Below are positions 1,165 to 17,840 of a DNA stretch of 17,840 nucleotides, piece by piece. A program made the translations under genes and the position numbers. The notes below the pieces were generated by a model. It saw nothing but the letters and a program-made list of their open reading frames with translations, had not been told where the DNA came from and searched no databases. Position 1 is the stretch's first letter. Each line of letters opens with the position of its first letter. This stretch comes from Promethearchaeia archaeon (lineage in GTDB: Archaea; Asgardarchaeota; Lokiarchaeia; Sigyniarchaeales; SOKP01): assembly GCA_029856125.1 (NCBI GenBank), contig JAHQWJ010000128.1, positions 1 to 17,840 of the forward strand. Reading direction: 5' to 3'.

Positions 1165-1333
1165 TTTTACCTAAAATCTCTTATTTTTATAACTTATTTT
1201 CTAGATTTTTAGAATTTTAATAAAAATCATTCAGATAAAGAACCTTAATTCCAACATACTAATAAGACTTTTTTCTTTTTATACTTAGATAAGGTTATAT
1301 TCTTCAAATATTAATATTGCATGAGTGTATATT

Positions 1334-2776
1334 ATGACTCCAATTGTTATTATGAAATTTGGTGGAAGCTGTTTAATTGATATGGATGCTTTCAAGAAAA
1401 TTCTCGAAATACTAGAAATTTATAAGGATGATAAAAAAATAATTGTGGCTTCAGCTCTTAATGGAATAACGGATTTGTTATTGAATACAGCACAAAATGT
1501 TAACAATTCAAAAATCCTTGATGATAATATAGCTATCTTGGAGAATAAGCATATTAATACTATCGAACAAATATTTGACGAAGATACTGAGCATTACACT
1601 AATGCAAAAGTTTGGGTTGACAAAAAACTTAGCGAATTGGAAGACGCTTTAGAGGATATTAAAGAGTTCGGATTAGAACCGTATTACAAAGATTATGTCT
1701 TAAGCTTTGGCGAGGTTTTATCCACATACATCTTGAACCAATATGTCTTAAGTAAAGGGCTAGAATCAGTTTATATTCCAGCAAATAAATTGATTATAAC
1801 AAACGACGAGTTTAACAACGCTTATCCTTTTTATGAATTTACTAATGTACGTGTTAAAAAAATGATAATTCCTCTATTAGAGAACACTAAAAAAGATATT
1901 ATAATCTCAATTACTGGTTTCATTGGGAGAAATAAAATTGGATACACAACCACTTTAGGGAGGGGGGGTTCAGATTATACCGCAACTATTCTTGCACATT
2001 CGATATACGAAGTTGCGAATGATAAGAACATAAAAGTAATTTTATGGAAAGATGTAGATGGTTTGCTGGCTATTAATCCAAAATTCGTCTCAAAATCAAC
2101 GCTCATAAAACATTTAGACTACAAAGAAGCAAAACACATTGCAAATTTTGGCGCAAAAATACTCCATCCGAAATGTCTTGAAGCAATTGAAAATCAAAGA
2201 ATTCCACTTGAACTGAGAAACTTCAACAAACCTCTTGAGAGAGTTGAATTTACAAAAATATCTGCAATGACTGATAAAAATGAAATCAAGGGAATTTCCA
2301 CTGTTGAAGATGCTGTAATAATAACTGTATCCTCAGGGAGTTTAGTTGATGTACCTGGCGTTTTAGCCAAAATATTTAAAGTCATGAGCAAAAATAGAAT
2401 AAGCGTCTCTTTAGTTGCTCAAAGTGCTTCGGAAATTAGTACTTCATTTATCGTGAAAGAAGCAGATTCCATCAGAGCAGTAAAGACGTTAGAGAGCTCT
2501 GGTTACTTTACAGATTTTTTTGAAATCAAATCTGAAAAAGTCGCAATAATTAATGTTACAGGTTTTAAGATCTTAGAAAATTTAACTAAAGTAATGATTT
2601 TCCAAGCTTTAGAAAAAGAAAAGATACAAGTGAAAGCTCTAACTCAAAGTACTGAGGAATTGAACATTTCTTTAGTTATAAAGAGAGAAGATATCGAAGT
2701 CGCCATTAAAATTATTCACAATGATTTATGTGGAAATTTCGAAGAAAAAGAAAACAATTTATGTAATCAAACGTAG
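1334..2776 (+). CDS. lysC: Aspartate kinase with C-terminal ACT domains
   Basis: Motifs IMKFGGS, IIVASA, VLSFGE, TTLGRGGSDYTA, LWKDVDG and FGAKILHP, followed by ACT-like repeats (VPGVLAKIFKVMSKNRISVSLVAQSASEISTSFIV; QSTEELNISLVI). The ATG at 1334 is preferred over the GTG at 1325. Confidence 0.93.
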   Translation: MTPIVIMKFGGSCLIDMDAFKKILEILEIYKDDKKIIVASALNGITDLLLNTAQNVNNSKILDDNIAILENKHINTIEQIFDEDTEHYTNAKVWVDKKLSELEDALEDIKEFGLEPYYKDYVLSFGEVLSTYILNQYVLSKGLESVYIPANKLIITNDEFNNAYPFYEFTNVRVKKMIIPLLENTKKDIIISITGFIGRNKIGYTTTLGRGGSDYTATILAHSIYEVANDKNIKVILWKDVDGLLAINPKFVSKSTLIKHLDYKEAKHIANFGAKILHPKCLEAIENQRIPLELRNFNKPLERVEFTKISAMTDKNEIKGISTVEDAVIITVSSGSLVDVPGVLAKIFKVMSKNRISVSLVAQSASEISTSFIVKEADSIRAVKTLESSGYFTDFFEIKSEKVAIINVTGFKILENLTKVMIFQALEKEKIQVKALTQSTEELNISLVIKREDIEVAIKIIHNDLCGNFEEKENNLCNQT

Positions 2777-2817: not shown

Positions 2818-3345
2818 TTATTGAGTTCTTGACTCAACAATTCTACGGGTAAGTTCAGTAAAGGCGTCGTCAACGTTAATACCTGTTTTTGCGGAAGTCT
2901 CAATGTAAATACTACCTTCCGCCTCAGCAAAAGCTCGAGCCTCTTCTCTATCTATTACTTCTCCGACATCTTCAACTAAATCTGCTTTATTCCCTATTAA
3001 TACAAAAGGTATGTTTTCGCTGCTAAATTGTCTTATTTCAGTTAACCATTTTCTTGTTTCGATGTAAGTCTGTTCTCTTGTTAAATCAAACACTAATAAA
3101 GCGCCAGCAGCTCCCTTATAGAATGTTGATCGGATGAATTCGAAGCGTTGTTGTCCACCAATATCCCAAATTGAGAGTGTTGCTACTTCGCCTTGCCTAA
3201 ATTCCACATCCTTAGTTAAGATGTCTACACCTACCGTTAATTTGTAGTTCGCCGCAAATCGGTTTTTGATAAATCTCTGAACAAGACTCGTCTTTCCAAC
3301 AGCAGCAGCACCCGTAAGTAAAACTTTTAATTTAAAAATTGACAT
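2818..3345 (-). CDS. Rab-like Ras-superfamily small GTPase without a C-terminal prenylation motif
   Basis: G1 GAAAVGKTS, G2 YKLTVGVD, G3 WDIGGQ, G4 NKAD and G5 ETSAK. RabF-like segments FYKGA and LVFDLT. The protein ends ...RRIVESRTQ. Confidence 0.95.
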   Translation of the reverse strand: MSIFKLKVLLTGAAAVGKTSLVQRFIKNRFAANYKLTVGVDILTKDVEFRQGEVATLSIWDIGGQQRFEFIRSTFYKGAAGALLVFDLTREQTYIETRKWLTEIRQFSSENIPFVLIGNKADLVEDVGEVIDREEARAFAEAEGSIYIETSAKTGINVDDAFTELTRRIVESRTQ

Positions 3346-3692: not shown

Positions 3693-4046
3693 ATGAAAAA
3701 AAAAGGACAAAATATTTTGTTTCTCATTAGTGGGATCATTTTTATGTATATTGGCATCACTCCCTTAGTTTACTTTTATGCTACTTTTCATGGAGAAGTA
3801 GGTTTCGATTATCTTAACTTTCAAAGAAATACTAGATTTTTTTTAGAATTATTTACCTTCACATATATGTTTTTAAGCATAAATTTTCTTATTCTTGGAT
3901 TAAATTTGTTCTTAAATAATAAAATAGAAAAAGTGTTCTCAATTAAGCGAATCTTTTATGTTCTTATAATAACGGGGGTATTTTTGTATATTCTGATGAC
4001 TCTTCTATTCCCCCCTATGGTTTTTTTTCAATATGTTTCTCTATAG
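3693..4046 (+). CDS. Small hypothetical integral membrane protein (about 3 TM helices)
   Basis: ATG start and basic N-terminus (MKKKGQ), followed by three long hydrophobic F/I/L-rich segments separated by short polar loops. It fills an otherwise empty intergenic space. Confidence 0.7.
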   Translation: MKKKGQNILFLISGIIFMYIGITPLVYFYATFHGEVGFDYLNFQRNTRFFLELFTFTYMFLSINFLILGLNLFLNNKIEKVFSIKRIFYVLIITGVFLYILMTLLFPPMVFFQYVSL

Positions 4047-4151: not shown

Positions 4152-6119
4152 TTACCTTTTTGGGATATGCGCATATTCTTTTAGACTAGGAAATAGATTC
4201 AAGTTTAAGTGAGGAAAATACATTGCTGAAGCAAATTCTTTTTGGAAATCTTTTTCAACTGCAATTTCGACGTACTGTATTTTTTCTTGTAATTTTCGAG
4301 CCTTTTTTCTTAAATCAACATTTAATAAGCAATTTTGCGCTCCGATCCCGGCAGCATTTCCAATTTGAAACAGTTTTTCGTCGGGTATATCGGGAATCAT
4401 CCCAATAAATTTGGCGTTTTTTTTATTAATGTAATTTCCAAATGCTCCAGCTAGAAGGATTTGTTTAATTTCTAAGTCGGAATTGTTTAAGCGATTTAAG
4501 TGGTTTAAAATCAAGCGTGTTCCGGAGAAGAACGCCCCTTTTGCCATTTGCAATTCTCTAACATCGCTCTGTGAAATCGTTATGTGTCTCTTAATTGGGG
4601 TGTCATCTTTATTTACTAATATAAATTTAATGTCTTTCTCTTCTTTTACTATACGCGCGTTGCCTATGAATTCTTTATTAAAGTTGCCGCTTCTGGTAAG
4701 CAGTTTCGCTTTTAACATTTCGGCTACTGTGTCAATAATACCAGAACCACAAATACCTATGGGTTTTTTGCTATTAATCGTGGTGTATTCAACACCAAAA
4801 TCACTCGGGTTAATTTTTAGAGTGTCAATAGCTCCTGCTGCTGCTCGCATGCCGTGTTGAATATGAGCGCCTTCTAAGGCAGATCCAGCTGCACAAGATC
4901 CCGTAAAAAGTACATCCTTATTACCGATGATCAATTCACCATTAGTTCCAACATCAATCGCTAACGTTAATTCTAGTTCTTTATCAATCTCTGAAGAAAT
5001 AACTACACCCATTGTGTCAGCTCCAACGAATCCAGCAATTAATGGTAAAACATAAACATATCCGCTTCTAGAAATCTCAAGATTAACATCTTTGGCTTTA
5101 AGGTTTAAGTCACTCTTCAGTGCCGGCACATAAGGACTTAAACCTATATATGTAGGATTTATTTTGAGGAATAAGTGATGCATAACCGAATTTCCAACGA
5201 TTACTGCCTCATATATTTGATTAACTGAAACATTAGCGCTAGTACAGGTTTCTTTTATTATTGAGTTTAAAGATTCTATCAGAATAGAATTCAATTTTTC
5301 AAGTCCTGCGGGATTATCTTTTGCGTATGTTATACGCGAAATTACATCTTCCCCGTAGGCTGTCTGTGGGTTAAGAGCCGATGCAATTGAATATATTTTT
5401 CCATTGTGCAAATTGATTAAATACCCAACGAGAGTTGTCGTTCCAATGTCAAATGCGATTCCGAAACAATCTTCTGTTTTATTACCGGCTTCGCAATCTA
5501 TTAATTTTTTATTATTATATACTGTTAATGAAATACGATGCTGATCTTCTCTTAAGACGAGGGGAATTTTTCTAATGGTATCAATTTCAAACGAAACATC
5601 TCTAGAAATTCCTGTATTATCCCTAGTTGACGAAAGAGAAGAAAATATTCTTTCAATATCAGGAACGGGGCTTTCTAAGGTTGGTTTATTAATTTCAACA
5701 AAAATTTTCTTTACATTTGGATTAAGGTTTATTTTTTTAGATTTTCCCGACGTCAATATCTTAAAATCTTCACCGAGTATATCTTTGGGAAGAAATATCC
5801 TTAACTGGGGTGGTTGATGTGTTTTAGCTGACTGAATTTTTGTTTTTTTTACTCTACTTTGACAAGCCAACCGCCAGTTTTCTCTAATCTCCGATTGTGT
5901 TAGATATTGCATTTCAGATTTTGTTGGAGGATTTAAGAAATTCATTCCTTCTTGGACCAGTATTTTACACTTTCCACATGTTCCCTTACCACCACAAAGG
6001 GACCGCACACGGATACCTGAATTGATCAGTAATTCATAAAAAGTTTCATCCTCGGTGTAGAAGAGTCTTCTCGAGATCGGTTCAATATCGACTGTAATCT
6101 GATTATTATTGCTATTCAC
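4152..6119 (-). CDS. ASKHA-family ATP-dependent reductive activator of corrinoid proteins (RACo/AcsV-like, DUF4445) with an N-terminal [2Fe-2S] ferredoxin domain
   Basis: N-terminal CGGKGTCGKC...RLAC 2Fe-2S motif. ASKHA motifs GIAFDIGTTT, NPQTAYGEDVISRI, FVGADT, IDVGTNGE, SCAAGSALEG, GICGSG, LAGAFG and GNAAGIGA. GTG start preceded by GAGGA. Confidence 0.92.
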   Translation of the reverse strand: MNSNNNQITVDIEPISRRLFYTEDETFYELLINSGIRVRSLCGGKGTCGKCKILVQEGMNFLNPPTKSEMQYLTQSEIRENWRLACQSRVKKTKIQSAKTHQPPQLRIFLPKDILGEDFKILTSGKSKKINLNPNVKKIFVEINKPTLESPVPDIERIFSSLSSTRDNTGISRDVSFEIDTIRKIPLVLREDQHRISLTVYNNKKLIDCEAGNKTEDCFGIAFDIGTTTLVGYLINLHNGKIYSIASALNPQTAYGEDVISRITYAKDNPAGLEKLNSILIESLNSIIKETCTSANVSVNQIYEAVIVGNSVMHHLFLKINPTYIGLSPYVPALKSDLNLKAKDVNLEISRSGYVYVLPLIAGFVGADTMGVVISSEIDKELELTLAIDVGTNGELIIGNKDVLFTGSCAAGSALEGAHIQHGMRAAAGAIDTLKINPSDFGVEYTTINSKKPIGICGSGIIDTVAEMLKAKLLTRSGNFNKEFIGNARIVKEEKDIKFILVNKDDTPIKRHITISQSDVRELQMAKGAFFSGTRLILNHLNRLNNSDLEIKQILLAGAFGNYINKKNAKFIGMIPDIPDEKLFQIGNAAGIGAQNCLLNVDLRKKARKLQEKIQYVEIAVEKDFQKEFASAMYFPHLNLNLFPSLKEYAHIPKR

Positions 6120-6305: not shown

Positions 6306-9300
6306 ATGATGGGAAATGAAGAACTTGCTCAAGAAGCTTTAAAGTATCTCGATTTGGCGCAAAAATTTGAGAATGAAAAAAATTTAGAAAAAGCTGTAGA
6401 GAATTACGAATTAGCAGCAAGCTATCTTAAGAATAGCGGCTTTATGATTGATAAAATAAGTGATATCTATTCTAGGATCGAAGAAATAAAGGATTTTGCA
6501 AAACAAGAGATGATGTATAATCAAGCAAGCGCAAAAAATCAACTTGAGCAATTACAAGACCAAGCCTTTTCTTTGTTAGATGGAGCTCAAAAATTAGAGA
6601 CAGATGGATTTTTGGAAGATGCAATTGAGCAATATAAAGCAGCAATCGAATTATTAATTCAAACAGGTTGGTCTGAAGCTCAATTAAGTAATTTACAAAG
6701 CAAACTAATAACATTATCAGAAAAGTTAAAACACCATCAAGCAATGACCTATGCCAAAATTGGGGAAGTTCAAGAACAAGATATCCTCCCTAAAGAAATG
6801 GAACCACAGGTTGTTAGCGCGTTTGGAAAGACGAAAAGTGTTGAAAAAGCTGGAGAATTAAAGAAGTTTAAAGATATGAAACAGCGAGAACAAGAGATAC
6901 AAAACGATGCCTTTGAGTTAATCGATAATGCAAAGTTTTTTGAAACCGATAAAAATTTCGATAAAGCAATTGAGAATTACGAAAATGCTGTAAAATTATT
7001 GAATTCTATAGGGTGGCACGAACAAACAAAGAATATCACCATAATTATTGAAAAATTAAAAAATGATAAAAAAGAGTATGAGCAATTTCGATCTGAGAAA
7101 CAAATAGAACCAACATTTACTAGAGAACATCCTGATGAATACGAAGAAGTGAAGACAAATATCTACAGAGATGAAGAAAAATTACAAATTGAAGCATTTA
7201 ATTTAGTGGATATTGGTAAAAAATTGGAAAGAGAGAAGAAATACGATTTAGCGATTATTAAATTTAATGTAGCAATTGAATTGTTTAAATCCATTGAATG
7301 GGACTCTTATATTCAACCAATTATAAACATGATCAAAAATATAGAAAATAAGCAAGCGCGCGAAGAGGAAGAGAATATTTCGAGACATAAAAGGGAGGAA
7401 CAGTTAAAAAACTTACAAGATACGATATATATTAAGGAAAAAGATGAAATTGTCGAAACTGCGAGAGAATTGGATAAGAGAAGATTAGAATACGAACAAA
7501 AAAGAAAACTAAATTTGAGGAAAGAAGAAAAGTTGTTTACAATTTTAGACGACGCTGATAGGATACTAAAAGAAGAATCTGATTATACCAAAGCAATTAA
7601 TAGATACACAGAAGCGTTAGGATATCTAAAGGAATTAGGAACAAATTGGGAAACACATGCTTCTACAATTGAAGAGACTATTTTAAGTATTAAAAAGATA
7701 GAAGAAAACAAAATTGAAAAAGATTTGGATCACCAGTCTAAGTTAGAACAACGCAGAAAAAGTGATTTAGAATATCAACAGCTCACCTCAATAGAGTTAG
7801 CAAAGGAAAGAGAAAAAATAAGGCAGAGAGAAGGTATTTTACAAGAAAAAAGAGAAGCTTTAGACCAACGCGAAAGTCGTAAAGCTGACGCGTATAAAGC
7901 TCTAGATGAAGCAGATTATTTCGTAAAAAAATCTGAATTAGATAACGCAATTGTTGCTTACCAAAAAGCAGGAAATATTTTTGCAAGCATACAATGGAAC
8001 GACGAGTTACATTTAATTGAAAATTCTATAAGAGAATTAGAAAATAGGAAAAGAGAACAAGCGTTTTCAAAACAAAAAGATATGATGAAATCCATAGAGA
8101 AATTTAAAGTTGAGCAGCAGTTTCAGGAACAAATATCAAAAAAGCTCCAATTAGAAAAAGAAAGCCTAAAACAGAAAAAAATATTGTTAAGAGATCAAAA
8201 AGCGGAATTGATGCATCGAGAGAAAAAAAAAGATGAAGCTTTTAAGATATTAGAGGATGCTCATTTTTATCTTGAAAAGGGCGATTTTGATAAAACAATT
8301 GAATACTATCAGCAAGTAACTAGCATTTTTGCTGAAATTCAATGGTATGATGAAATGGAAAGGATAGGGAACGCTATAATCGAAATCGAAAATAAAAAAC
8401 GGGATGCTACTCTAAAAAAACAAAGAGATATGGAAATTCTTATAAAGAAAGAAAGAGAGGATAGAGGATTTCAAGAAAAAATCATCAAAGAGATAAACAT
8501 AAAGAGAAAACAACTAGAAGAAAGAGAGATCGTTAAGAAAGAACGCGCTAACGAAATTAATTTTAGAGAAAAACAAAAGGAGGAAGCGTTTAAAATCTTG
8601 GACGAAGCTCAAAACTTTCTTTCTTTAGGAGAATTCAATTTAGCAATTGAAAGCTATAAAAGTGTAAATCAAATTTTTGCTCAAATTCAATGGATTGAAG
8701 AAATTGTGCTTATAAACCAGACAATTAACAAAATCGAAAATAAAAAGAAGGAACAGGAAATTAGGAAACAAAAAGAGTTCGAACAAATCATCAAAGAAGA
8801 TGCCGAACGCAAACAATTTCTTATTAATATTAAAATCCAAAGAGAAAGAGAAAAAAGATTAATCCAAAAAGAAAGGGCAATATTAGAAGTAAAGAAGGAA
8901 TTGAGTTCCCAGAACATTCTAAAACAACAAGAAGCGTTTAAAATTATTGACGACGCTGATGAATTTTTAGTGCAAGAAAATTATAATATTGCCATTGAAA
9001 TGTATCAAAATGCGCTTAATTCACTCAAAAATATAGGATGGACGGGAAACTACATTTTATTATTAGGAGAATCAATTCGAAATCTGCAATTTAAAAGGGA
9101 CGAAATAAAGCGCCAAAAATTACTCGATAAAGAACAGCTACGAAAAAACATCGAAGAAGAAAGAGAATTTGAGAGAAAGGTGACAGAAAGTTTTCAAAAA
9201 GAAAGAGAGAAGATGCTATCAAAGAAGATCGAGCTTCTTAAAAGGGAAGATATGAAGAATTTGATGGAGACAAAAAAGTTGGAAGCCTTTTCTATAATGG

Positions 9301-11231
9301 ATAAAGCAGCACAACTATTAGAAGAAGGGAAGTATGAAGAATCTATAGAGAAATATTATGACGCAGAGTTAATCTTAATTCAAATTCAGTTTCCTACTGA
9401 AATAATAAAAGATACTATAATAAAAATACAAGAAAAAAAACGGGAAGCCAATAAAACTAAACAACAAGAGTTAGAGTATGGAATTAGAAAACAAGAAAAA
9501 GAAAAACACTTTCTTAAGACCGTTGCTGATACAATGAAATACGAAGAAGAACAAATGAGAGTTAAACAGATTAAAATTAAGAAACAAGAAGATCTTAAAT
9601 TACATTTAGAGAAACGCAAAGAAGTGGCTTTTGAATTATTTGACGAAGCTGAAGTATATGTAAAACGTGCAGATTATAATAAAACTTTAGAGTACTATAG
9701 AAGCGCGGAGTTAGTGCTAAATGAAATTAATTACCCTACAAATTCGATTAAAGAGTTAATCGTACAATTTAAGGAGAAGAAGAGAATTAATGACCTCCAA
9801 AAACAAAAATTACTTGAACGAAAACTTCAAAATGAGCGCGAGAAAAATGATTTTCAAAAGAAAATTGCGAAAAATATCGGCAAAGAAAGAGAGCGCTTGA
9901 AGATAAAAAAGATTGAAGCTGAAAAATTAATTTTAACGCAAGCATTTATAGAAGGAAAAAAAGATGAAGCTTTTAATATTTTGGATGATGCTGAACTACA
10001 CATTAACAATTCTAAGTTTGAATTAGCTATTATGAGTTATAGGAAAGCGATGTTAATTCTTAATGAGATAAATTTTCCAACAGATTCCATTAGTGGTATG
10101 ATCGGAAAAGCAGAAGAGCTCAAAAGACGTGGAGAACTTGAGGAGGAACAAAAGTTAAAAAGAGAATTAGAACGGCTGAAAGAGGAAAGGAATTTGGAAG
10201 CTATCTTAACGGAAAGAAGACAGCAAGAAAGAGAAAAGAAGAAAGCTCAGCATATTGCATCTAAACAGAGAGAAAGAATTATTCAAGACCAAATGACATT
10301 TAGAGAAGCAGCATATTCTCTCTTAGAAGACGGTGGAAAATATATTAAAATGAGCACTCCTGATTACGACAAAGCAATTTCGTTGTATATTCAAGCAAGA
10401 GATTTATTAGCTGAAAAAATAGGTTGGGAACCCGAACTTAATAATTTAAACACTTTAATCAAGGATTTGATTAATGAGAAAGAACTTTATTTGAAAAAGA
10501 AAAAAGCAGAAGAAGAAAATACCATTAAAAGACAACAAGAATACGAACTATTTCGCGAAGAGATGAGGAAACAACAAATGGAAACTGTACTTAGAAAAAG
10601 AGAACAGCAAAAGAAATTTAAGCAGTTATATGAAACTCAGAAACAGTTTGAAAAAATTAAAGAAGAAGGATTAAAACTTATAGATGAAGGGAAAGAATTA
10701 ACAACTAAACATGAATTTAAGGATGCTTATATGAAATTTAATAACGCAATTACTAAGTTCAAAAATATAGGTTGGGGTGAACAAACAAAATTTATTGAGA
10801 AGGAAATTGAGAACGCGAGAAGATTCGAGCAAAAAGTAAATGATAGTAATCGGAAAATAAAAAAAATTCAACAAGAACTAGAAAACCAAAAGTTAAAAGA
10901 AGAGCGTAAAAAGAAAGAAGAAGAACAAAAAATTAAAGGAACGATAAAAGAAGTAAGCGTTTTATCAGGAGAAATTTCAGAATTAATCAAAATTAAAAAA
11001 GAAAAAGAAGAGTTAGAGTCTCGGCAGAAAAGAGAAATGGTTGTATCTAAATCAAAGGAATTCCGTAAAGACATGCTAAACTTATTAAATTTTAAGCAAG
11101 ATTTAACACGGGAATTGTTGGAATCAAAAAAAGCAATAGAAGATAAGAAAAAAGAAGCCGAAATTGCAAAGGATAAAGAAAAGGCAGATGAAATAAAGAA
11201 GATGTTGAAGGAAGTATCAAAAAACAAATAA
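6306..11231 (+). CDS. Giant (1641 aa) all-helical repeat protein: 14 MIT/TPR-like units separated by E/K/R/Q-rich helical linkers
   Basis: Uninterrupted 4.9-kb ORF. The consensus EAFxxLDxAxxxxxxxxYxxAIxxYxxAxxxhxxIxW (or IxFP/IxYP) recurs 14 times with highly charged intervening segments. No enzymatic motif, signal peptide or TM helix was seen. Confidence 0.88.
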   Translation: MMGNEELAQEALKYLDLAQKFENEKNLEKAVENYELAASYLKNSGFMIDKISDIYSRIEEIKDFAKQEMMYNQASAKNQLEQLQDQAFSLLDGAQKLETDGFLEDAIEQYKAAIELLIQTGWSEAQLSNLQSKLITLSEKLKHHQAMTYAKIGEVQEQDILPKEMEPQVVSAFGKTKSVEKAGELKKFKDMKQREQEIQNDAFELIDNAKFFETDKNFDKAIENYENAVKLLNSIGWHEQTKNITIIIEKLKNDKKEYEQFRSEKQIEPTFTREHPDEYEEVKTNIYRDEEKLQIEAFNLVDIGKKLEREKKYDLAIIKFNVAIELFKSIEWDSYIQPIINMIKNIENKQAREEEENISRHKREEQLKNLQDTIYIKEKDEIVETARELDKRRLEYEQKRKLNLRKEEKLFTILDDADRILKEESDYTKAINRYTEALGYLKELGTNWETHASTIEETILSIKKIEENKIEKDLDHQSKLEQRRKSDLEYQQLTSIELAKEREKIRQREGILQEKREALDQRESRKADAYKALDEADYFVKKSELDNAIVAYQKAGNIFASIQWNDELHLIENSIRELENRKREQAFSKQKDMMKSIEKFKVEQQFQEQISKKLQLEKESLKQKKILLRDQKAELMHREKKKDEAFKILEDAHFYLEKGDFDKTIEYYQQVTSIFAEIQWYDEMERIGNAIIEIENKKRDATLKKQRDMEILIKKEREDRGFQEKIIKEINIKRKQLEEREIVKKERANEINFREKQKEEAFKILDEAQNFLSLGEFNLAIESYKSVNQIFAQIQWIEEIVLINQTINKIENKKKEQEIRKQKEFEQIIKEDAERKQFLINIKIQREREKRLIQKERAILEVKKELSSQNILKQQEAFKIIDDADEFLVQENYNIAIEMYQNALNSLKNIGWTGNYILLLGESIRNLQFKRDEIKRQKLLDKEQLRKNIEEEREFERKVTESFQKEREKMLSKKIELLKREDMKNLMETKKLEAFSIMDKAAQLLEEGKYEESIEKYYDAELILIQIQFPTEIIKDTIIKIQEKKREANKTKQQELEYGIRKQEKEKHFLKTVADTMKYEEEQMRVKQIKIKKQEDLKLHLEKRKEVAFELFDEAEVYVKRADYNKTLEYYRSAELVLNEINYPTNSIKELIVQFKEKKRINDLQKQKLLERKLQNEREKNDFQKKIAKNIGKERERLKIKKIEAEKLILTQAFIEGKKDEAFNILDDAELHINNSKFELAIMSYRKAMLILNEINFPTDSISGMIGKAEELKRRGELEEEQKLKRELERLKEERNLEAILTERRQQEREKKKAQHIASKQRERIIQDQMTFREAAYSLLEDGGKYIKMSTPDYDKAISLYIQARDLLAEKIGWEPELNNLNTLIKDLINEKELYLKKKKAEEENTIKRQQEYELFREEMRKQQMETVLRKREQQKKFKQLYETQKQFEKIKEEGLKLIDEGKELTTKHEFKDAYMKFNNAITKFKNIGWGEQTKFIEKEIENARRFEQKVNDSNRKIKKIQQELENQKLKEERKKKEEEQKIKGTIKEVSVLSGEISELIKIKKEKEELESRQKREMVVSKSKEFRKDMLNLLNFKQDLTRELLESKKAIEDKKKEAEIAKDKEKADEIKKMLKEVSKNK

Positions 11232-11513
11232 TTTTATTTTCTTAATCTATATCTCTTTTGTTTACCTTCTTATATAATATTCATGCGTAAACTAAACCTA
11301 CAATATTAATTCCTACCTAACTAGTTAAGTGTGAATTGACTGGTTGAAAAACATTCTCTCTGAAACTACCAATAATTAAAAATTGGGAAATGGGAAGAAC
11401 TATGAAGATGATAAAAATTAAACAAGGCTTTCTCAAAAAGAAACACTAAAAGAATTTAAATTTTCTTGAAGGATAATTAATATATATTATAATAAAAATT
11501 AGGGATATTTAAA

Positions 11514-13097
11514 ATGACTGTAAACAACAACAAGGAAGAGATCAAAAAATCCCGTATGTACGCCCGCCAACAATTAATCGACGGTTGGGATCAAGAAATT
11601 GTAAGCAATGGTTGTATCATGATCGTTGGTGTGGGAGCTTTAGGGTGCGAAATAGCAAAGGATTTTGCATTAATGGGTATTGGAAAAATAGTTTTAGTAG
11701 ACCTCGATACCATTGAAACATCTAATTTATCTCGCCAAATGTTATTCAAACCGGGGGATGAGGGGCGTCCTAAAGCAGAAGTCGCAGCTGAAAGGCTTAA
11801 AGACATGAATCCATTCTTGAAAGTTGATTTTTACTTTGAAAAACTCCAGAAATTAGCAATTTCGGTATACGAAGAATGTGATGTCGTCATTGCCGCTTTA
11901 GATAACTTTAACGCAAGGTTAGATTTGAATAAGATTTGTCTTCGGATGAAAAAACCAATGGTAGAGGGAGGAACAGTAGGTTTTGAAGGTCACGTACAAG
12001 TAATCATCCCTAAAGATTCAGAACTCGAATATAAAAACAGAGAATTTGAAATCGAAAATGTTGTAGACACGAGAATGTGGGAATTTGATAATCCAGAGTA
12101 CTTAGATGCTCAAAAAGAAATCGAACAGCTAGAATACTTGATAGAGAGATTAAAGCAAGAGAAACTCGAACCATTTAGAAGGCTAGTAAGAAAACAGGTA
12201 GAAGAAGAATTTGATAAAAAATACGCTGAGGATGTTTTGAATATAACGCCTTGTTACCGATGTTTAGTTCCGATCCCCCCTGCAGATGATAAATTAGTTG
12301 CGGCGTGCACTTTAAAAGGGCTTCCAAGAAACAGAAACCATTGCGTTATAAAAGCGGAGGTTATCTTCGAAAAAGAATACGGTTTTAAACCTGATATGAA
12401 TGTTGACGACGATGTGGTTAAATTAAAGTCTTTAGCTCAAAAAGAATTGGAGGCTCTAAGGGGCAGAGTTTTCAAAGAGAATGTTCCTGAAGAAAAGTTA
12501 GAAACGCTTACGCCAGAAGAAATTACTGAGTGGAAAGAAAATATTAAAGATACATTCGGAGAAGATTATAAATTTGAAGAAATGGAAAACATCTTAGGTA
12601 ATAAAATTGCAGCAATTCAATCAGTAAGTTCTATTATTTCTAGCATTCAATCGCAAGAAGCCTTAAAATTATTATTTCGATTGTATGGAAGAAATATCGG
12701 TCCACCCATGGATCCTCCTTATGTTAATTATAATGGTGTCTATGGCCAATTTGATCAATTACATATTACAAAACGGGAAGATTGTTTAGCGTGTGGGAAT
12801 ATTGAAGGTGAAGAAAATGTACAATTGGTCGTTCCTTTTGATTCCGATGTAGGCTACATTTTCAAAGCTATGAGAATAGTAGGTCACGATCTAGAACCCA
12901 TTCTCTGGATGATCACTAACCCTGTTAATAAAGAAATGTATTGGAATCCTTATATGAGTGGTGAGTTTAAGGATCCAACTATAAAACTAACGAAACTAAA
13001 AATAAAAAGCAACGATATAATAACTCTCACTCCACTTGGTAAGGCTAAAGTAGAATCAGAAATTAAAAAATACAATGTGATTATTACTTTCATGTAA
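11514..13097 (+). CDS. E1-type ubiquitin/Ubl-activating enzyme (ThiF/MoeB/E1 family; UBA3/UBA2-like architecture)
   Basis: YARQ; Gly-rich IVGVGALG; DLDTIETSNLSRQMLF; ALDNFNAR; EGGTVGFEGHVQVIIP. Zn-binding pairs PCYRC and DCLAC. Catalytic-Cys motif AACTLKGLPRNRNHC (C265) resembles the CT..PR...HC motif of UBA3/UBA2. A ~95-aa C-terminal domain sits at the position of the ubiquitin-fold domain. Confidence 0.9.
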   Translation: MTVNNNKEEIKKSRMYARQQLIDGWDQEIVSNGCIMIVGVGALGCEIAKDFALMGIGKIVLVDLDTIETSNLSRQMLFKPGDEGRPKAEVAAERLKDMNPFLKVDFYFEKLQKLAISVYEECDVVIAALDNFNARLDLNKICLRMKKPMVEGGTVGFEGHVQVIIPKDSELEYKNREFEIENVVDTRMWEFDNPEYLDAQKEIEQLEYLIERLKQEKLEPFRRLVRKQVEEEFDKKYAEDVLNITPCYRCLVPIPPADDKLVAACTLKGLPRNRNHCVIKAEVIFEKEYGFKPDMNVDDDVVKLKSLAQKELEALRGRVFKENVPEEKLETLTPEEITEWKENIKDTFGEDYKFEEMENILGNKIAAIQSVSSIISSIQSQEALKLLFRLYGRNIGPPMDPPYVNYNGVYGQFDQLHITKREDCLACGNIEGEENVQLVVPFDSDVGYIFKAMRIVGHDLEPILWMITNPVNKEMYWNPYMSGEFKDPTIKLTKLKIKSNDIITLTPLGKAKVESEIKKYNVIITFM

Positions 13098-13135
13098 AAG
13101 CTGTTATTGTTTTATGTAAAATCAAATCACAGTTG

Positions 13136-13804
13136 TCAAGATTTTTTTATATTTCTTACGTGGTTAATAAGAGTGTCGATATAGTAAGACTCTACTCCTG
13201 CGCTAGCTCCCGCTAATAAATCTTTTTCTACATCGCCAAAATAAATCATTTCTTCAGAATTAACTTTGAAATAATCTAAAATTTTCAATAAGCCATCGGG
13301 TTCTGGTTTCCATTTTCTAACGTCTTCCCGCCCTACAAAAAACTCAAATTTATCAACGATTCCTGCCATTTCAAGTGATTTGAGAATAGTTGATCGAAAG
13401 TTTAGCGAAAAAACCGCCAATTTGGCGTTAGGAGATACTCCAAATAACTCTTTATTATTAATAAAATAAATAGTTTCCTTAATTGGCTCGTTACTCGATA
13501 TATTTTCAAGTTCGTATTGCCGCATAAGATTAAAATTCAGTTGGAGTTCTTCTTCATCACCCATCTCAATGATTCTAGATAAGATTGTCGACATATTTTT
13601 GAAATTGAGATCTTCTCGATTTCTTTCAGTAAATCGGGCATTTAGAGCCTTACGTAACGAATGCCAATCAGCGCCCAATCTTACAATAGTGCCGTCTAAG
13701 TCAAAAACAATAACTTTCTTACCTATAAATGAAAATGGTATATTTTTTGCCATGCGCTCGAAAAAATCTTCTTCTATTACTAATTGTGATAATTTTTTAT
13801 CCAA
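13136..13804 (-). CDS. HAD-superfamily hydrolase (subfamily IA, phosphoglycolate-phosphatase-like)
   Basis: Motif I VFDLDGT, motif II FSLN, motif III KPEPDG and motif IV YFGDVEKD. The start is uncertain (TTG 13804 or ATG 13753). Confidence 0.88.
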   Translation of the reverse strand: MDKKLSQLVIEEDFFERMAKNIPFSFIGKKVIVFDLDGTIVRLGADWHSLRKALNARFTERNREDLNFKNMSTILSRIIEMGDEEELQLNFNLMRQYELENISSNEPIKETIYFINNKELFGVSPNAKLAVFSLNFRSTILKSLEMAGIVDKFEFFVGREDVRKWKPEPDGLLKILDYFKVNSEEMIYFGDVEKDLLAGASAGVESYYIDTLINHVRNIKKS

Positions 13805-13836
13805 ATTAAGTTTTAACAGAGAATTTTATAATGAGT

Positions 13837-14715
13837 TCATAAGCGAGCATAGAATTGTGCCTTATATCCTATTTTATGGAAAGGACATTCCTTAATACAC
13901 ACAGAACACCCCGTAGTTTTGTAAAAGTGTTCTATGCACTTCTCACCGTCGATCCGGGTAACAATGCCGTTTTCTTTAACAATTGGCTCATCGTAAATTG
14001 CGTTCACAGGGCACAGATTAACGCACCTTTTACATTTCTTGCAGTATTGCTCGACATCAACAGTTTCTTGAGCAACATCTGGAAGAGGAGAAATATTAAC
14101 TGAGATTACAGATAACCTTTGCCTAGGACCGAATCTTCTAGTGATTAACAGACCTTGTCTTCCAATTTTACCTAACCCCGCTTTTACTGCCATAGCGGGA
14201 TACAGAATTGGCCCACCAAGAGGATGGCATCCAATTGCTCGATATCCTTTTGATCGAATAAAGTTTGTTAATTTATTCGTGGCTTCACCTAACTCAGCAT
14301 AAATATTTAGAGATTCAATTCCAGCTGGAGGTTCAGGTGCCGTTTCTATAGCCTCGTAGTCCATCTCCATCCCTAAGACGATTGCATTCTCGTACAAAAC
14401 TTCGATTCCACCCACATGATCGTTCTCAAACATAAAATCTTCAACTATTGGGGCAAATCCTACAAGATCAATTCCTAGTTTTTTAGCTTGAACTAACAAC
14501 TCTTCCCAAAACTCTTTAGGAGCAGACTGAACGCTTTCTGGGAGGCCTTCAATCTCCTTTTTATAGGTTGAAATCGCTTTCCGAATCGTTTTAAAGACTT
14601 TTGGTATTATCCTCTTTGTATCTTCAGAGGATGAGCCTTCCATATCTTTTATATGGAATTTGGTCAGTTCAATTAATCTTGATTTCAATCCCTTTGACTT
14701 CTTTAGCATAGCCAT
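13837..14715 (-). CDS. Reductive dehalogenase / epoxyqueuosine reductase (RdhA/QueG)-like cobalamin-dependent 2x[4Fe-4S] protein
   Basis: GIDLVGFA, AIVLGMEMD, FIRSKGYRA and AVKAGLGKIGRQGLLITRRFGPRQRL. Fe-S motifs CKKCKRCVNLCP and C...CSVCIKECPF. No Tat signal was seen. Confidence 0.85.
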   Translation of the reverse strand: MAMLKKSKGLKSRLIELTKFHIKDMEGSSSEDTKRIIPKVFKTIRKAISTYKKEIEGLPESVQSAPKEFWEELLVQAKKLGIDLVGFAPIVEDFMFENDHVGGIEVLYENAIVLGMEMDYEAIETAPEPPAGIESLNIYAELGEATNKLTNFIRSKGYRAIGCHPLGGPILYPAMAVKAGLGKIGRQGLLITRRFGPRQRLSVISVNISPLPDVAQETVDVEQYCKKCKRCVNLCPVNAIYDEPIVKENGIVTRIDGEKCIEHFYKTTGCSVCIKECPFHKIGYKAQFYARL

Positions 14716-14826
14716 CTCGTAAGAACTAATACTTTGCTTTAATCTAATTAATTTTATAAATATTTTTATTATAGTAGCGGTAGAAATAATCTATAAAAAA
14801 TAGGGGATAAAAAATAGTATTTAATT

Positions 14827-15336
14827 CTAATCCATGGCATATTTAGAAGTCCATGACTTAGCTTTTGATTCAAACTTCTTTTGAGCCCTGAAATATTGCT
14901 CACCCGCCTCGTGGTTGAGAGGGTCTCCTGGGTTAAAGAAGGGTGGTTCTACGTGCATCATGCCTTTTAAGGCTTCTACGATATTGGTTAAAGTTTTTGA
15001 TGGAGTCCAGCCCGATGCGCCAGTTGAAGCGTCTACCTTGCCAACAAGGTCCGGATTAATCAGATCTAAACATATATTAAGTTTTCCTGGAGGTATGCTG
15101 CTGTCTATGTTAGGATGCCACATTAGTGTAACTGCGTATGCGTATGGAGGGGCAAATGGATAATTTTCCGGGAACTTGACTTCGAAAATGAACTTTCCTT
15201 TATTATAAGGTGTTCCTTCCTTCCCTATAATTGTAAGTCGAAGATGATCGATACTGCGCCCCCAAGGTTCGATGATAATATTAGCATCATCCTTGTAAGT
15301 TTCAATAGCTTCGGTATAATCGGTTTCTTCTCGCAT
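14827..15336 (-). CDS. E2 ubiquitin-conjugating enzyme (UBC fold)
   Basis: IIGKEGTPYNKGKF, FPENYPFAPP, WHPNI...ICLDLI (catalytic C89), WTPS, DPLNHEAG and C-terminal FESKAKSWTSKYA, all characteristic of E2 enzymes. Confidence 0.95.
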   Translation of the reverse strand: MREETDYTEAIETYKDDANIIIEPWGRSIDHLRLTIIGKEGTPYNKGKFIFEVKFPENYPFAPPYAYAVTLMWHPNIDSSIPPGKLNICLDLINPDLVGKVDASTGASGWTPSKTLTNIVEALKGMMHVEPPFFNPGDPLNHEAGEQYFRAQKKFESKAKSWTSKYAMD

Positions 15337-15613
15337 TAAATTTCACTTTTTTATTGATTTTTTAAATCGTATTAACTATATAGTTAGAGTTTTCTTTAAA
15401 AAAATTTGTGCTATTTTAGATTTTTATCACAAATTAATAGAACAAATTATAAAATTTACCAAGATTGAAAAGTTTTGTTTTTAAAAATTATAAATTCCCT
15501 TCATTCATGCGACATCTAGTAGAAAATCGTAAAAATTATATTGCTATATTAATTAAAAAGTATATCGAAACTTTACCCCCCTTAGCTCAGCTGGTCAGAG
15601 CGCGCGGCTGTAG

Positions 15614-15662
15614 ATCAATATCGCATACTAAGGTTTTTACCTATGAAGTATTGTCAGCCGAT
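15614..15662 (+). other. tRNA intron 1 (49 nt, canonical position 37/38)
   Basis: Removal restores the 7-nt anticodon loop CTGTAGA. C32 can pair with the third-last intron base G15660. Relaxed BHB with one U-C mismatch in the central helix. Internal stems CAATA/TATTG and AGGT/ACCT. Confidence 0.85.
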
Positions 15663-15684
15663 ACCGTGAGGTCCTCGGCTCAAA

Positions 15685-15713
15685 TTATCTGTTCTTTGTG
15701 GAAGAAATGAGAT
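15685..15713 (+). other. tRNA intron 2 (29 nt, non-canonical position 59/60 in the T loop)
   Basis: BHB with 4-bp helix CTCA(15679-82)/TGAG(15708-11) flanked by 3-nt bulges AAT(15683-85) and ATT(15712-14). Inner stem TTCTT/AAGAA. Removal gives a 7-nt T loop. Confidence 0.85.
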
Positions 15714-15798
15714 TCCGAGAGGGGGGACTAATTTCTTCTTTAGAATAATTATATTCTAAAATTTTTTACATCATTAATTCGTCAGTTTTACTTCTTTT

Positions 15799-17745
15799 TT
15801 AATCTCTTACCCTTTTTCTGATGATAACAATTGAGATTGCGAGTATTTGCAAACTTACCAAAATAAGAATATAAAGATCGTATCCAGGTATAGCTTGGCT
15901 AATAATTAAATCTAGCCTGAGTTCACTGTCAGAATCTAATTGAACTAAAATGTAATTATCGTATAATAGACTGACCTTGCTTGGATCGTTTGGTAAAACA
16001 AAGGAAAATTCGGTTGTTCCATTAATCCAGACATCTTCACTGAGTATAAGCTGTTTTGATGCGTCGTAAATAGCTAATGGAACCTGCTGAGAATATTTGT
16101 AATGGTTCAATGGCTCGTTAAGATCTTCAATGGTAAAAGTTAACCTTTTAGTATCTGTATTATAGTTGTGATTTGAAAAAGCATAATTTGGAAGAAATTC
16201 GTTATCAAACCATGGGAAGAAAAACCAATCTAGCGATTGCCCCACTATGTCCTCGAATGCTTGCTGAATATCTGATAATATGACGAGCCCAAATTGGTGT
16301 CTCTCAAAATATAACTTTAATCCTTCTAAAAAGTCTGTAAGTCCGAGAGTTAGGCGTAACTTTTCAAAAATTAGAGGAGCTTTTATATAGGCGATATGGA
16401 CATAATCAGTATATGTAGCTATACATTCGTAAACTGTTTGATTTATTTTTGAGCTTAATCCATACGATGCGTAGTAATAAACTCTCACTTCATCAATATA
16501 TAGCTTATTTTGGAAATATTCCCAGTTGTTGTGATATTTTTCACCGTAATAATCAGTTGACCAACAAGTTAGCCCTTCATCTAAAAATCCCACATCTACT
16601 TCGTCGTTTCCAACTAAATTATACCACCATTGATGACATACCTCGTGAACAATTATTTGCTCTAAGTATCTTCGATTTACTTCGGGAGTATTAGGCCAGC
16701 GTTCTATCGATTCAGAAATGTATACTTGATTTGGGTATTCCATACCTCCATATTCCGTGTATTCTTCTACAACATTAAGTGTTGGGTAAGGATATATTCC
16801 AAAAGTGTTATTAAAGAGAATTAGAGCATTTTCTGTGTGATTTAAGGCATTAACATTCCAAAAATCAAAGTCTTTTTTAAGGAAGAAGGTTGAAACATTC
16901 ACACCATTTGAAATTTTTGATTGTACTTGAAAATATTTCGAAGCTGAAAAAGTGACTTCCCGTACAGGATAAATAGGATTAAAGTGATACAATGTGGTTG
17001 CGCCGTTTTCTAATTTTTTTTCTAAACCTCCGGTTGCTGCTATTATCATATCGCTCGATGCTTCGATAAAGAAGTTATAATAAGCCATATCAAAATAAAA
17101 TGGATCACCCGTGGTCAAATAAGAATCAGTGTTCCAACCGTCTTTATTATCATAAACGCATGGTATAGGATAAAAACTCCCAAACTTATAAATGGTTGAA
17201 TTGTTTATATCGCTTCCATGAGAATTGGATCTATCAATTCCTCCATCTGGAATGGTTGCGTTAAATTGAATCATAAATTCTGCTCTTTTTTGAGGTTCTA
17301 AATTTGCTGTTAGGTTTACCCACATAATTTGTTGATCTGAATATACATCAAACGGGATTGCTAAATTTGGGTCATCTAAATCGGTAACATTTACAATTTC
17401 AATGAGACCCGGTCTTGAAGCGTATTCCATTCCGGATAAATAAATGTGAAAAGGAATTCTTGTATAATTCACGCCATCGTTATTATAAAAATCAACCGTC
17501 AAATTTCCTTCAATAAAAGAGCTTATTTCGTCCATAATTACAGTTAAATTATAACGAGAGAAATTCCCGCTGATTTGAGCTAATTTTGGATAATCAAAAA
17601 CCGTCTCAACACTATCATCTCCCAAAGGAGAGATAAAATCATTATTTTGGAATTTAGGTGGGAACATAAAAACAGAAGTGAAAACACAATCTATTAAGAA
17701 AATACCTATTAACAGGCCAGAAAATTTATGATATTTTTTTTTCAT
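15799..17745 (-). CDS. Secreted/membrane-anchored M1-family zinc aminopeptidase with a C-terminal IPGY-TM-basic anchor
   Basis: Exopeptidase motif GGMEYP; HEVCH-x18-E (HEVCHQWWYNLVGNDEVDVGFLDEG); catalytic Tyr region IAYIKA. The N-terminus is a basic plus hydrophobic signal and the C-terminus reads IPGYDLYILILVSLQILAISIVIIRKRVRD. ATG 17745 is preferred over TTG 17757. Confidence 0.92.
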   Translation of the reverse strand: MKKKYHKFSGLLIGIFLIDCVFTSVFMFPPKFQNNDFISPLGDDSVETVFDYPKLAQISGNFSRYNLTVIMDEISSFIEGNLTVDFYNNDGVNYTRIPFHIYLSGMEYASRPGLIEIVNVTDLDDPNLAIPFDVYSDQQIMWVNLTANLEPQKRAEFMIQFNATIPDGGIDRSNSHGSDINNSTIYKFGSFYPIPCVYDNKDGWNTDSYLTTGDPFYFDMAYYNFFIEASSDMIIAATGGLEKKLENGATTLYHFNPIYPVREVTFSASKYFQVQSKISNGVNVSTFFLKKDFDFWNVNALNHTENALILFNNTFGIYPYPTLNVVEEYTEYGGMEYPNQVYISESIERWPNTPEVNRRYLEQIIVHEVCHQWWYNLVGNDEVDVGFLDEGLTCWSTDYYGEKYHNNWEYFQNKLYIDEVRVYYYASYGLSSKINQTVYECIATYTDYVHIAYIKAPLIFEKLRLTLGLTDFLEGLKLYFERHQFGLVILSDIQQAFEDIVGQSLDWFFFPWFDNEFLPNYAFSNHNYNTDTKRLTFTIEDLNEPLNHYKYSQQVPLAIYDASKQLILSEDVWINGTTEFSFVLPNDPSKVSLLYDNYILVQLDSDSELRLDLIISQAIPGYDLYILILVSLQILAISIVIIRKRVRD

Positions 17746-17840
17746 GTTTCTAATCAAGCAACTTATTACAAAAAATTAAAGAAACGTATATTGATAAACA
17801 TTATTACATACTTCTACTAACTTGATAAAATTCTTATTCT

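Follow-up and report, generated by a model that had tools for sequence, protein, structure and literature searches.

Ubiquitin systems of Asgard archaea have so far been described as compact operons, dispersed and multiplied later in eukaryotes. The operonic archaeal ubiquitylation system is known from Caldiarchaeum subterraneum, with the gene order Ub-E2-E1-srfp and with Rpn11, and from the Asgard clusters I-III (Hennell James et al., 2017, PMC5654768). Apart from operonic sets, the literature on the Asgard systems reports that Lokiarchaeota have two discrete Ub and ESCRT regions and that Asgards have multiple E2s (PMC5654768, PMC9192718, PMC6601020, PMC11354881); the latter point is all that Tromer et al. 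(2019, PMC6601020) note in this respect. A literature search, which was incomplete and is not proof of novelty, found neither a dispersed second set of this kind nor a fused E1 described for Asgards. The present analysis concerns an E1 gene, an E2 gene and a giant repeat-protein gene on contig JAHQWJ010000128.1 of the Promethearchaeia archaeon assembly GCA_029856125.1. The window, i.e. the whole stretch of 17,840 nucleotides that was analysed, is this entire contig (C128), and its host is a 3.69-Mb Loki-type Asgard metagenome-assembled genome (MAG) in 153 contigs. In what follows, G000 denotes the genome of the window, Cnn its contigs, and f1-f7 families of Lokiarchaeia, the window genome belonging to f1.

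Our preferred reading, to which we assign a probability of about 0.63, is that the E1 and the E2 belong to a second Loki-type ubiquitin system whose ubiquitin gene lies on another contig, and that the giant protein, which is called here the rod protein, is only an inherited neighbour. A first-pass annotation of the window had described the repeat gene as co-oriented with the E1 gene and ending 282 bp before it, with an intact-looking E2 gene about 1.7 kb further on the opposite strand. This layout is confirmed by the open reading frames (ORFs): the gap between the giant gene and the E1 gene is 282 bp, and the E2 gene sits 1729 bp past the E1 stop codon on the other strand, with a HAD and an Fe-S protein gene intervening. 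The same annotation had seen no modifier, RING, JAB or ESCRT gene in the window, and this observation also holds, as the RING, JAB and ESCRT families gave no match among the 12 window ORFs scanned against Pfam, and among the ORFs of at least 30 aa between the genes there is none with a Gly-Gly end or a resemblance to ubiquitin. However, because the window is only one whole contig, absence from it says little about the genome.

The E1 protein matches the ThiF family (PF00899) with 201 bits. It has a single adenylation domain and its own Arg-finger helix (YARQ, R18), and R18, the loop G39xG41xxG44, D130, the zinc-binding cysteines C247/C250 and C424/C427, and C265 are invariant across 28 orthologues, so that the adenylation, zinc and catalytic-Cys motifs are indeed intact, as had been proposed. 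C265, located in the motif AACT, aligns with the catalytic Cys of yeast Uba1. The AlphaFold2 model of the protein (predicted local distance difference test score, pLDDT, 79) shows, in addition to the Rossmann core and the helical Cys domain, a long helical insert and, at aa 433-526, a C-terminal beta-grasp-like strand-and-helix domain; this last domain has a pLDDT of 78-93 by 10-residue block, while the crossover loop bearing C265 is modelled with low confidence. The top Foldseek matches, all of them full-length, were UBA3, UBA6, SAE2 and UBA1 (E values from 1e-23 to 1e-18). Judged by sequence and predicted fold, the window protein is a Cys-domain E1 of the UBA1/2/3 class, with the adenylation, Cys and ubiquitin-fold domains all recognizable, and the earlier assignment to the UBA3/UBA2 type agrees with the model. 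The ubiquitin-fold domain is the predicted E2-recruiting domain of the class.

In UBA3 and UBA2/SAE2 the same order is found, namely an adenylation domain, a crossover loop with the catalytic Cys, a helical Cys domain and a ubiquitin-fold domain, although identity to the window E1 is 16-20% in structural alignments. In these eukaryotic enzymes, the Arg finger comes from a second, inactive subunit, whereas the window E1, like MoeB and ThiF, has retained one in its own chain. If one considers the literature on MoeB/ThiF and on the heterodimeric E1s, the retention of this Arg finger suggests that the window E1 probably works as a homodimer. Uba1, in contrast, is a single chain that contains both an inactive and an active adenylation domain. 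While the window E1 itself is unfused, its orthologue in family f4 is a single chain with a Uba1-like layout, in which the YARQ Arg-finger helix belongs to the degenerate first ThiF domain and is missing from the second, active one. In three genomes of f5 and f7, the orthologue has a length of about 410 aa and neither of the helical inserts of the window E1. Some E1 orthologues carry one or two in-frame stops.

The E2 protein matches UQ_con (PF00179) with 93 bits against a cut-off of 27. Its H74-P75-N76 motif and C89 align with yeast Ubc1 and with a second UBC-core chain, and a 13-residue insert follows just past the active-site Cys. With the UBC core, HPN motif and active-site Cys all recognizable in the sequence, the protein is assigned as a UBC-fold E2, and the intact appearance attributed to it by the first-pass annotation is thereby substantiated. 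Its orthologues are 82-95% identical to it within f1 and 67-76% identical in other families.

Genome-wide, G000 contains exactly two E2s and four ThiF-family genes, two of which encode Cys-domain E1s. The other E1-E2 set is a tight Ubl-E1-E2 run of the operon type (Ubl, ubiquitin-like protein) located on C65. Over the adenylation core, the window E1 is 48% identical to the C65 E1; the two E2s are 37% identical, and both contain the insert after the active-site Cys. On these sequence grounds, the window E1 and E2 are a second set, paralogous to the canonical Asgard operon set, in line with the earlier suggestion of a separate E1-E2 pair. Like the operonic archaeal system, the window set would comprise an E1 with catalytic-Cys and C-terminal ubiquitin-like domains, a UBC-fold E2 and a ubiquitin-fold modifier. 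It differs in that modifier, RING and JAMM genes are not clustered with the window E1 and E2; in that its proposed modifier is on another contig and has a ready-made Gly-Gly end, while Ala-Gly takes its place in the operon Ubls, in some cases with additional residues; in the two extra helical inserts of its E1; and in being found only in Lokiarchaeia. The idea that either set is clearly more eukaryote-like was considered, but is not borne out by bit scores: against solved eukaryotic enzymes, and on scores only, the two sets are about alike, with 138 versus 130 bits for the E1s and 68 versus 61 bits for the E2s.

The distribution of the genes was studied in one sample of 201 Asgard genomes. Window-type E2s were found in 41/45 f1 and 4/4 f2 genomes, a ubiquitin ending in Gly-Gly (GG-ubiquitin) in 38/45 and 4/4, and neither in any of the 151 genomes from the other 23 families. 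A full-length window-type E1 was likewise present only in f1 and f2, the top matches elsewhere being no better than the operon paralogue. In addition, E1 orthologues were present in all 60 relatives searched, which span f1-f7; the E2 and ubiquitin genes were present in all five f2, f4 and f7 genomes checked, and the one f3 genome likewise has the E2. E1, E2 and GG-ubiquitin have the same range, which covers all seven sampled families of Lokiarchaeia and no Asgard family outside them.

The arrangement of the E1 and E2 genes is variable. In f1 they lie about 0.6-6 kb apart in every locus long enough to contain both, with varying E2 orientation and intervening genes, and in the one f3 genome the E2 gene is 4 kb from the E1 gene, on the other strand. 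In the f7 genome G060, the E2 gene comes directly after the E1 gene and precedes a JAB/MPN gene whose product has a long helical tail. By contrast, the E1, E2 and ubiquitin genes of three closed f2 genomes are single copy and megabases apart; complete dispersal, of the kind seen in eukaryotes, is tolerated by the system. The linkage of rod, E1 and E2 seen in the window was thus upheld by the comparison of relatives only in part: E1-E2 proximity recurs in f1, f3 and f7 and is absent from the closed f2 genomes, whereas rod linkage is confined to f1 and f3.

As to the modifier, G000 has one frame, on C56, that combines a real Pfam ubiquitin match with an end in Gly-Gly-stop (...AGG, then the stop codon), and weak matches to ubiquitin and to the Mdy2/Get5 UBL were found in the PDB. 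By its Pfam domain and C-terminal Gly-Gly, this predicted protein is a member of the ubiquitin family. Three further Ubls of G000, two on C65 and an orphan on C145, end in Ala-Gly. Full-length copies of the GG-ubiquitin are 91-100% identical across ten genera of f1, and in two f4 genera (G039 and G045) the GG-ubiquitin gene adjoins the orthologue of the window E1. The copy in G039 is complete save for a 27-nt insert with an in-frame stop, while in G045 only the last 25 codons are recognizable. It is because of this adjacency in f4, of the family-by-family match in range, and of the high conservation of a protein that needs no processing, that we tie the GG-ubiquitin to the window enzymes and regard it as probably the missing modifier of the pair. 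Its near-invariance and its ready-made Gly-Gly end fit a modifier constrained by many partners. Close to this end the tail contains neither Lys nor Arg, and trypsin would be expected to leave about 12 of its residues on a target.

By analogy with the enzymes of the class, an E1 homodimer would bind ATP, each chain supplying its own R18 as Arg finger, and would adenylate the C-terminal Gly of the ready-made GG-ubiquitin encoded on C56, which would then move onto C265 of the E1 as a thioester. The pairing of this E1 with the window E2 and the choice of modifier are inferred from the comparative data above. Every Lokiarchaeia family sampled would have retained this second system in addition to the canonical Ubl-E1-E2-JAMM-RING operon, and the rod gene would stand beside the E1 gene by inherited order in one pair of families, the gap having shrunk when an intervening subtilase gene was lost.

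The rod protein was described by the first-pass annotation as an MIT/TPR-like repeat protein, and this description is well supported. It matches the Pfam MIT family (PF04212) with 86 bits against a cut-off of 30, which is a whole-protein score summed from several weak stretches, and TPR below threshold. A unit profile located 14 MIT-like units of about 58 aa, from aa 9-63 to aa 1452-1504, with a period of 114-119 aa in the central part. The linkers are helices rich in K, E, R and Q, and a charged tail of 137 aa closes the chain, which contains 15% K, 16% E and no Cys. The unit profile itself matches MIT domains (Vps4A, calpain-7 and the katanin-like Sulfolobus Vps4) and the TPR core motif. An AlphaFold2 model of aa 526-816, covering three units and based on 12 orthologues, has a pLDDT of 91 and displays small three-helix bundles, with helix 3 of each unit continuing for about 90 residues into helix 1 of the next. 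Foldseek gave no global match for this three-unit model, and the sole local structural match was the MIT domain of Sulfolobus Vps4 (2w2u; probability 0.98, root-mean-square deviation 3.8 Å over 63 columns).

The predicted rod unit therefore resembles the MIT domains of Vps4/CdvC, katanin p60, calpain-7 and Vta1 in being a three-helix bundle and in carrying the signature A-x-x-A-I-x-x-Y, which is common to MIT and TPR, and binding to ESCRT-III tails (MIT-interacting motifs, MIMs) is conceivable, but only that. Known MIT proteins contain one to few MIT domains. The rod protein differs from them in its 14 copies, in the exposed helices of about 57 residues between them, and in having no ATPase or other catalytic domain. 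A resemblance to spectrin can also be seen, in that the last helix of one bundle runs into the first helix of the next in both. Going by the model, the giant protein is probably a separate structural rod, with 14 MIT-like knobs on long helices, and its length may be estimated at roughly 0.2 micrometres.

In Lokiarchaeal MAGs, homologues of the rod are annotated as 'hypothetical' or 'TPR' proteins. Its syntenic orthologues are about 500 to more than 2700 aa long, and those checked contain 4 to 14 units. The rod as such varies from 4 to more than 24 units and is 30-44% identical between genera, compared with 64-77% for the E1 and 82-91% for the E2. A paralogue of 1370 aa with 10 irregularly spaced units is encoded on C38 in an unrelated neighbourhood. 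It adjoins the gene for a 131-aa protein, homologues of which sit two or three genes upstream of the E1 gene in two f7 genomes; this may be a coincidence. The proteins named for Lokiactin in the main text of PMC13716822 are profilin, gelsolins, an ARF GTPase and BAR proteins, and a pull-down of rod relatives with Lokiactin could not be confirmed.

Several observations bear on the meaning of the position of the rod gene. The whole f1 block AK-Ras-RACo-rod-E1-HAD-E2 is syntenic (AK, aspartokinase-like), and RACo is still near the rod gene in f3; rod-E1 linkage is confined to f1 and f3, where unrelated neighbours stay too. In 12 loci, a subtilase (S8) gene coding for 450-530 aa lies between rod and E1, on the opposite strand and convergent with the rod gene; these loci come from six species of the window genus (g1), from the genera g20, g24 and g28, and from f3. 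No subtilase homologue was found in the 153-contig MAG G000. Because of its occurrence in these 12 relatives, the ancestral order was probably rod, opposite-strand subtilase, E1, and the 282-bp gap of the window appears to be derived. The E1 gene is preceded by an element resembling a B-recognition element and TATA box (BRE/TATA-like), which recurs as AAAAGAnTTTAAAT at a similar distance before E1 in most f1 loci inspected, including some with the subtilase gene upstream; 13 copies of the element occur in G000, one of them on C128. The T-rich tract straight after the stop codon of the rod gene is possibly an archaeal oligo-T terminator, as judged from its sequence. A promoter motif common to the E1, E2, GG-ubiquitin and rod genes was looked for, and none was found. 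No match to the rod profile was found in G044, G050 and G060, and those in G055 and G045 were weak and unlinked; the E1/E2/ubiquitin triad is present in all five genomes. Finally, the two helical inserts of the E1 do not track the rod, because they are present also in f2 genomes in which no rod was detected. The block synteny, the subtilase gene, the promoter-like element of E1, the triads with no rod detected or linked and the inserts lead us to regard the rod-E1 neighbourhood as inherited order rather than function.

The first-pass annotation had instead suggested that the rod might be the scaffold, substrate or non-RING E3-like partner of the E1 and E2, with a possible link of Ubl conjugation to membrane remodelling or cell architecture. 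It should be noted that several points speak for such a partnership and against our preferred reading. The rod gene is upstream of E1, directly or with the subtilase gene between, in 27/27 informative f1 loci from 10 genera, and the f3 rod orthologue (7 units) is 2.5 kb from E1; proximity conserved over such depth is not nothing. A protein with 15% Lys and MIT-like units would also suit a platform, a main Lys-rich substrate or an adaptor perhaps tied to ESCRT-III or cell architecture, and an E3 for the window pair was not found in G000. Moreover, the missing subtilase, and the missing finger protein discussed below, could reflect gaps of the 153-contig assembly. Nevertheless, the linkage of the rod is no stronger than that of unrelated genes, a convergent subtilase gene probably separated rod and E1 ancestrally, the E1 gene has its own conserved promoter-like element while the rod gene ends in a T-rich tract, the triad occurs in genomes with no detectable rod, no ubiquitin genes are near the C38 paralogue, the E1 inserts occur in f2 genomes in which a rod was not detected, and the rod diverges fast compared with E1 and E2. 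Likewise, no link to ESCRT was found, the Vps4 and ESCRT genes being on C126. The role proposed for the rod is thus unsupported, and a real functional link between rod and E1 appears unlikely. Somewhat more doubtful is a bolder version, in which a dispersed eukaryote-style system (GG-ubiquitin, E1, E2, a Uba1-like fused E1, a FANCL-like RWD-finger protein and an MPN protease) would use the f1/f3 rod as its dedicated platform or main substrate, with marks placed at fixed spacing.

Two other explanations accept the enzymes but question their partners. The window pair might serve the Ubls ending in Ala-Gly (the C65 copies and the C145 orphan) as a back-up or specialized branch, the GG-ubiquitin being activated by another E1-like enzyme such as the MoeB-like protein of C56. 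This would account for an orphan Ala-Gly Ubl with no enzymes alongside, which could instead be a substrate of the window pair; the two E2s are clear paralogues with the same insert after the active-site Cys, and the ThiF/MoeB gene lies 8 kb from the GG-ubiquitin gene on the same contig. It should also be conceded, as a weakness of our reading, that adjacency of ubiquitin and E1 is limited to two genomes of one family, one of which has only the partial gene. However, in the two f4 genera it is the window-E1 orthologue, and not a MoeB gene, that stands beside the GG-ubiquitin; the range of the GG-ubiquitin matches that of the window E1 and E2 family by family; and the MoeB-like protein, with its 246 aa, is the size of a bare ThiF domain and has no room for a Cys or ubiquitin-fold domain. 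We therefore consider this explanation improbable. Alternatively, E1 and E2 could both be functional without being partners, their closeness being also just inherited order. The two genes are on opposite strands, 1.7 kb and two unrelated genes apart, they are megabases apart in the closed f2 genomes, and their direct adjacency was seen in one genome only, which again weighs against our reading. On the other hand, they are close in three different arrangements (f1, f3 and f7) and share the same taxonomic range, and G000 has exactly two Cys-domain E1s and two E2s, of which the other pair stands together in the operon. A lack of partnership between them appears very unlikely.

If the reading of a second Loki-type system is correct, two parallel ubiquitin-type cascades are already present within one Asgard class, and the genes of one cascade are scattered over the chromosome as they are in eukaryotes. 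The origins of E1-modifier specificity, of E1-E2 pairing and of single-chain E1s could in that case be approached directly with proteins of cultured Lokiarchaeia. It would also remove a tempting but weak inference, i.e. that the giant MIT rod is a ubiquitin/ESCRT adaptor.

Features of the window (C128) and related loci on other contigs of G000 or in relatives (L numbers); positions are nucleotides unless marked aa
Feature	Position	Strand	Remarks
Pro-rich repeat protein, 3' part	1-1164	+	PPEPIE/PPKPIE repeat run and long Pro-/Lys-rich region
Aspartokinase-like protein (AK)	1325-2776		
Ras-like GTPase	2818-3345	-	
Small membrane protein	3693-4046		
RACo	4152-6119	-	
Giant rod protein, 1641 aa	6306-11231	+	ORF list; Pfam MIT
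T-rich tract straight after the stop codon of the giant gene	11232-11262	+	Read from sequence
BRE/TATA-like element AAAAGAATTTAAAT	11448-11461	+	53-66 nt before the E1 start codon
E1, 527 aa	11514-13097	+	ThiF (Pfam)
E1 nucleotide loop	aa 39-44; 11628-11645		
E1 lineage-specific helical inserts (two)	about aa 167-244 and 315-345		
E1 Zn Cys pairs	aa 247/250 and 424/427		
E1 catalytic C265	12306-12308		
E1 helical Cys domain	aa 274-362		AlphaFold2 model
E1 C-terminal ubiquitin-fold domain	aa 433-527; 12810-13094		
HAD-IA hydrolase	13136-13804	-	Pfam; weakly PpaX-like, far under family cut-offs
Reductive-dehalogenase/QueG-like Fe-S protein	13837-14715	-	
E2, 169 aa	14827-15336	-	UQ_con (Pfam)
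E2 catalytic C89	15070-15072		
E2 HPN motif, H74-P75-N76	15109-15117		
tRNA-Tyr(GTA)-like gene	15576-15725	+	Read by eye
M1 peptidase	15799-17757	-	
GG-ubiquitin, proposed modifier	C56:9331-9570		PF00240, 38.6 bits against a cut-off of 25.4
ThiF/MoeB gene	C56:948-1688		
Rod paralogue	C38 17900-22570 (L060 5901-10556)	-	
Fused E1 of f4, 792-980 aa	L041 1613-4555; L042 9489-11867	-; -	GG-ubiquitin gene alongside
GG-ubiquitin gene of G039	L041 5987-6256		
Subtilase between rod and E1 (examples)	L070 8228-9778; L080 8262-9851; L033 4504-5865	-; -; -	And 9 further loci
HAD-IA hydrolase beside window-type E1	L038 8381-11221; L033 9326-9910		
NTP-transferase/hexapeptide protein, RWD-finger protein, E1 cluster	L047 6032-12205 (G060)		Also L045, L046

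Among the neighbouring genes, that of the HAD-IA hydrolase recurs beside the window-type E1 in f1, in f3 and in one f2 genus. In that f2 genus, genes for a GTPase, the E1 and the HAD protein are co-oriented, with gaps of 7 and 2 nt. The hydrolase is a possible accessory of the E1; that it might clear the pyrophosphate of the adenylation step is pure speculation.

The gene before the E1 orthologue in three genomes of f5 and f7 codes for a conserved protein of 420 aa, in which RWD/UQ_con-like domains are combined with a Cys/His finger; this gene is part of the cluster listed in the table. The RWD-finger protein is present in 107/151 genomes of the class and in 20/39 of the window genus, and many orthologues of its gene contain one or two in-frame stops. 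Searches of G000 by tblastn and with a profile did not detect it, and the 18-kb region that contains its gene in the close relative G007 has neither a DNA match nor an orthologue-level gene match in G000. In architecture, and only in this respect, the protein resembles FANCL, which has an E2-like fold, a double RWD domain and a C-terminal RING, as here too RWD/UQ_con-like domains are followed by a Cys/His-rich finger. The finger was considered as a possible RING, and this was rejected because it has no significant match to a Pfam RING model; in this it is unlike FANCL.

At the left end of the window, the Pro-rich repeat protein has no Pfam match. ARAGORN and Rfam reported no RNA gene in the window, and both missed a tRNA-Tyr(GTA)-like gene that can be read by eye. 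In this sequence, the acceptor stem, D-arm and anticodon stem are legible, with an interruption of about 55 nt after the anticodon loop and another of about 25 nt in the T-loop.

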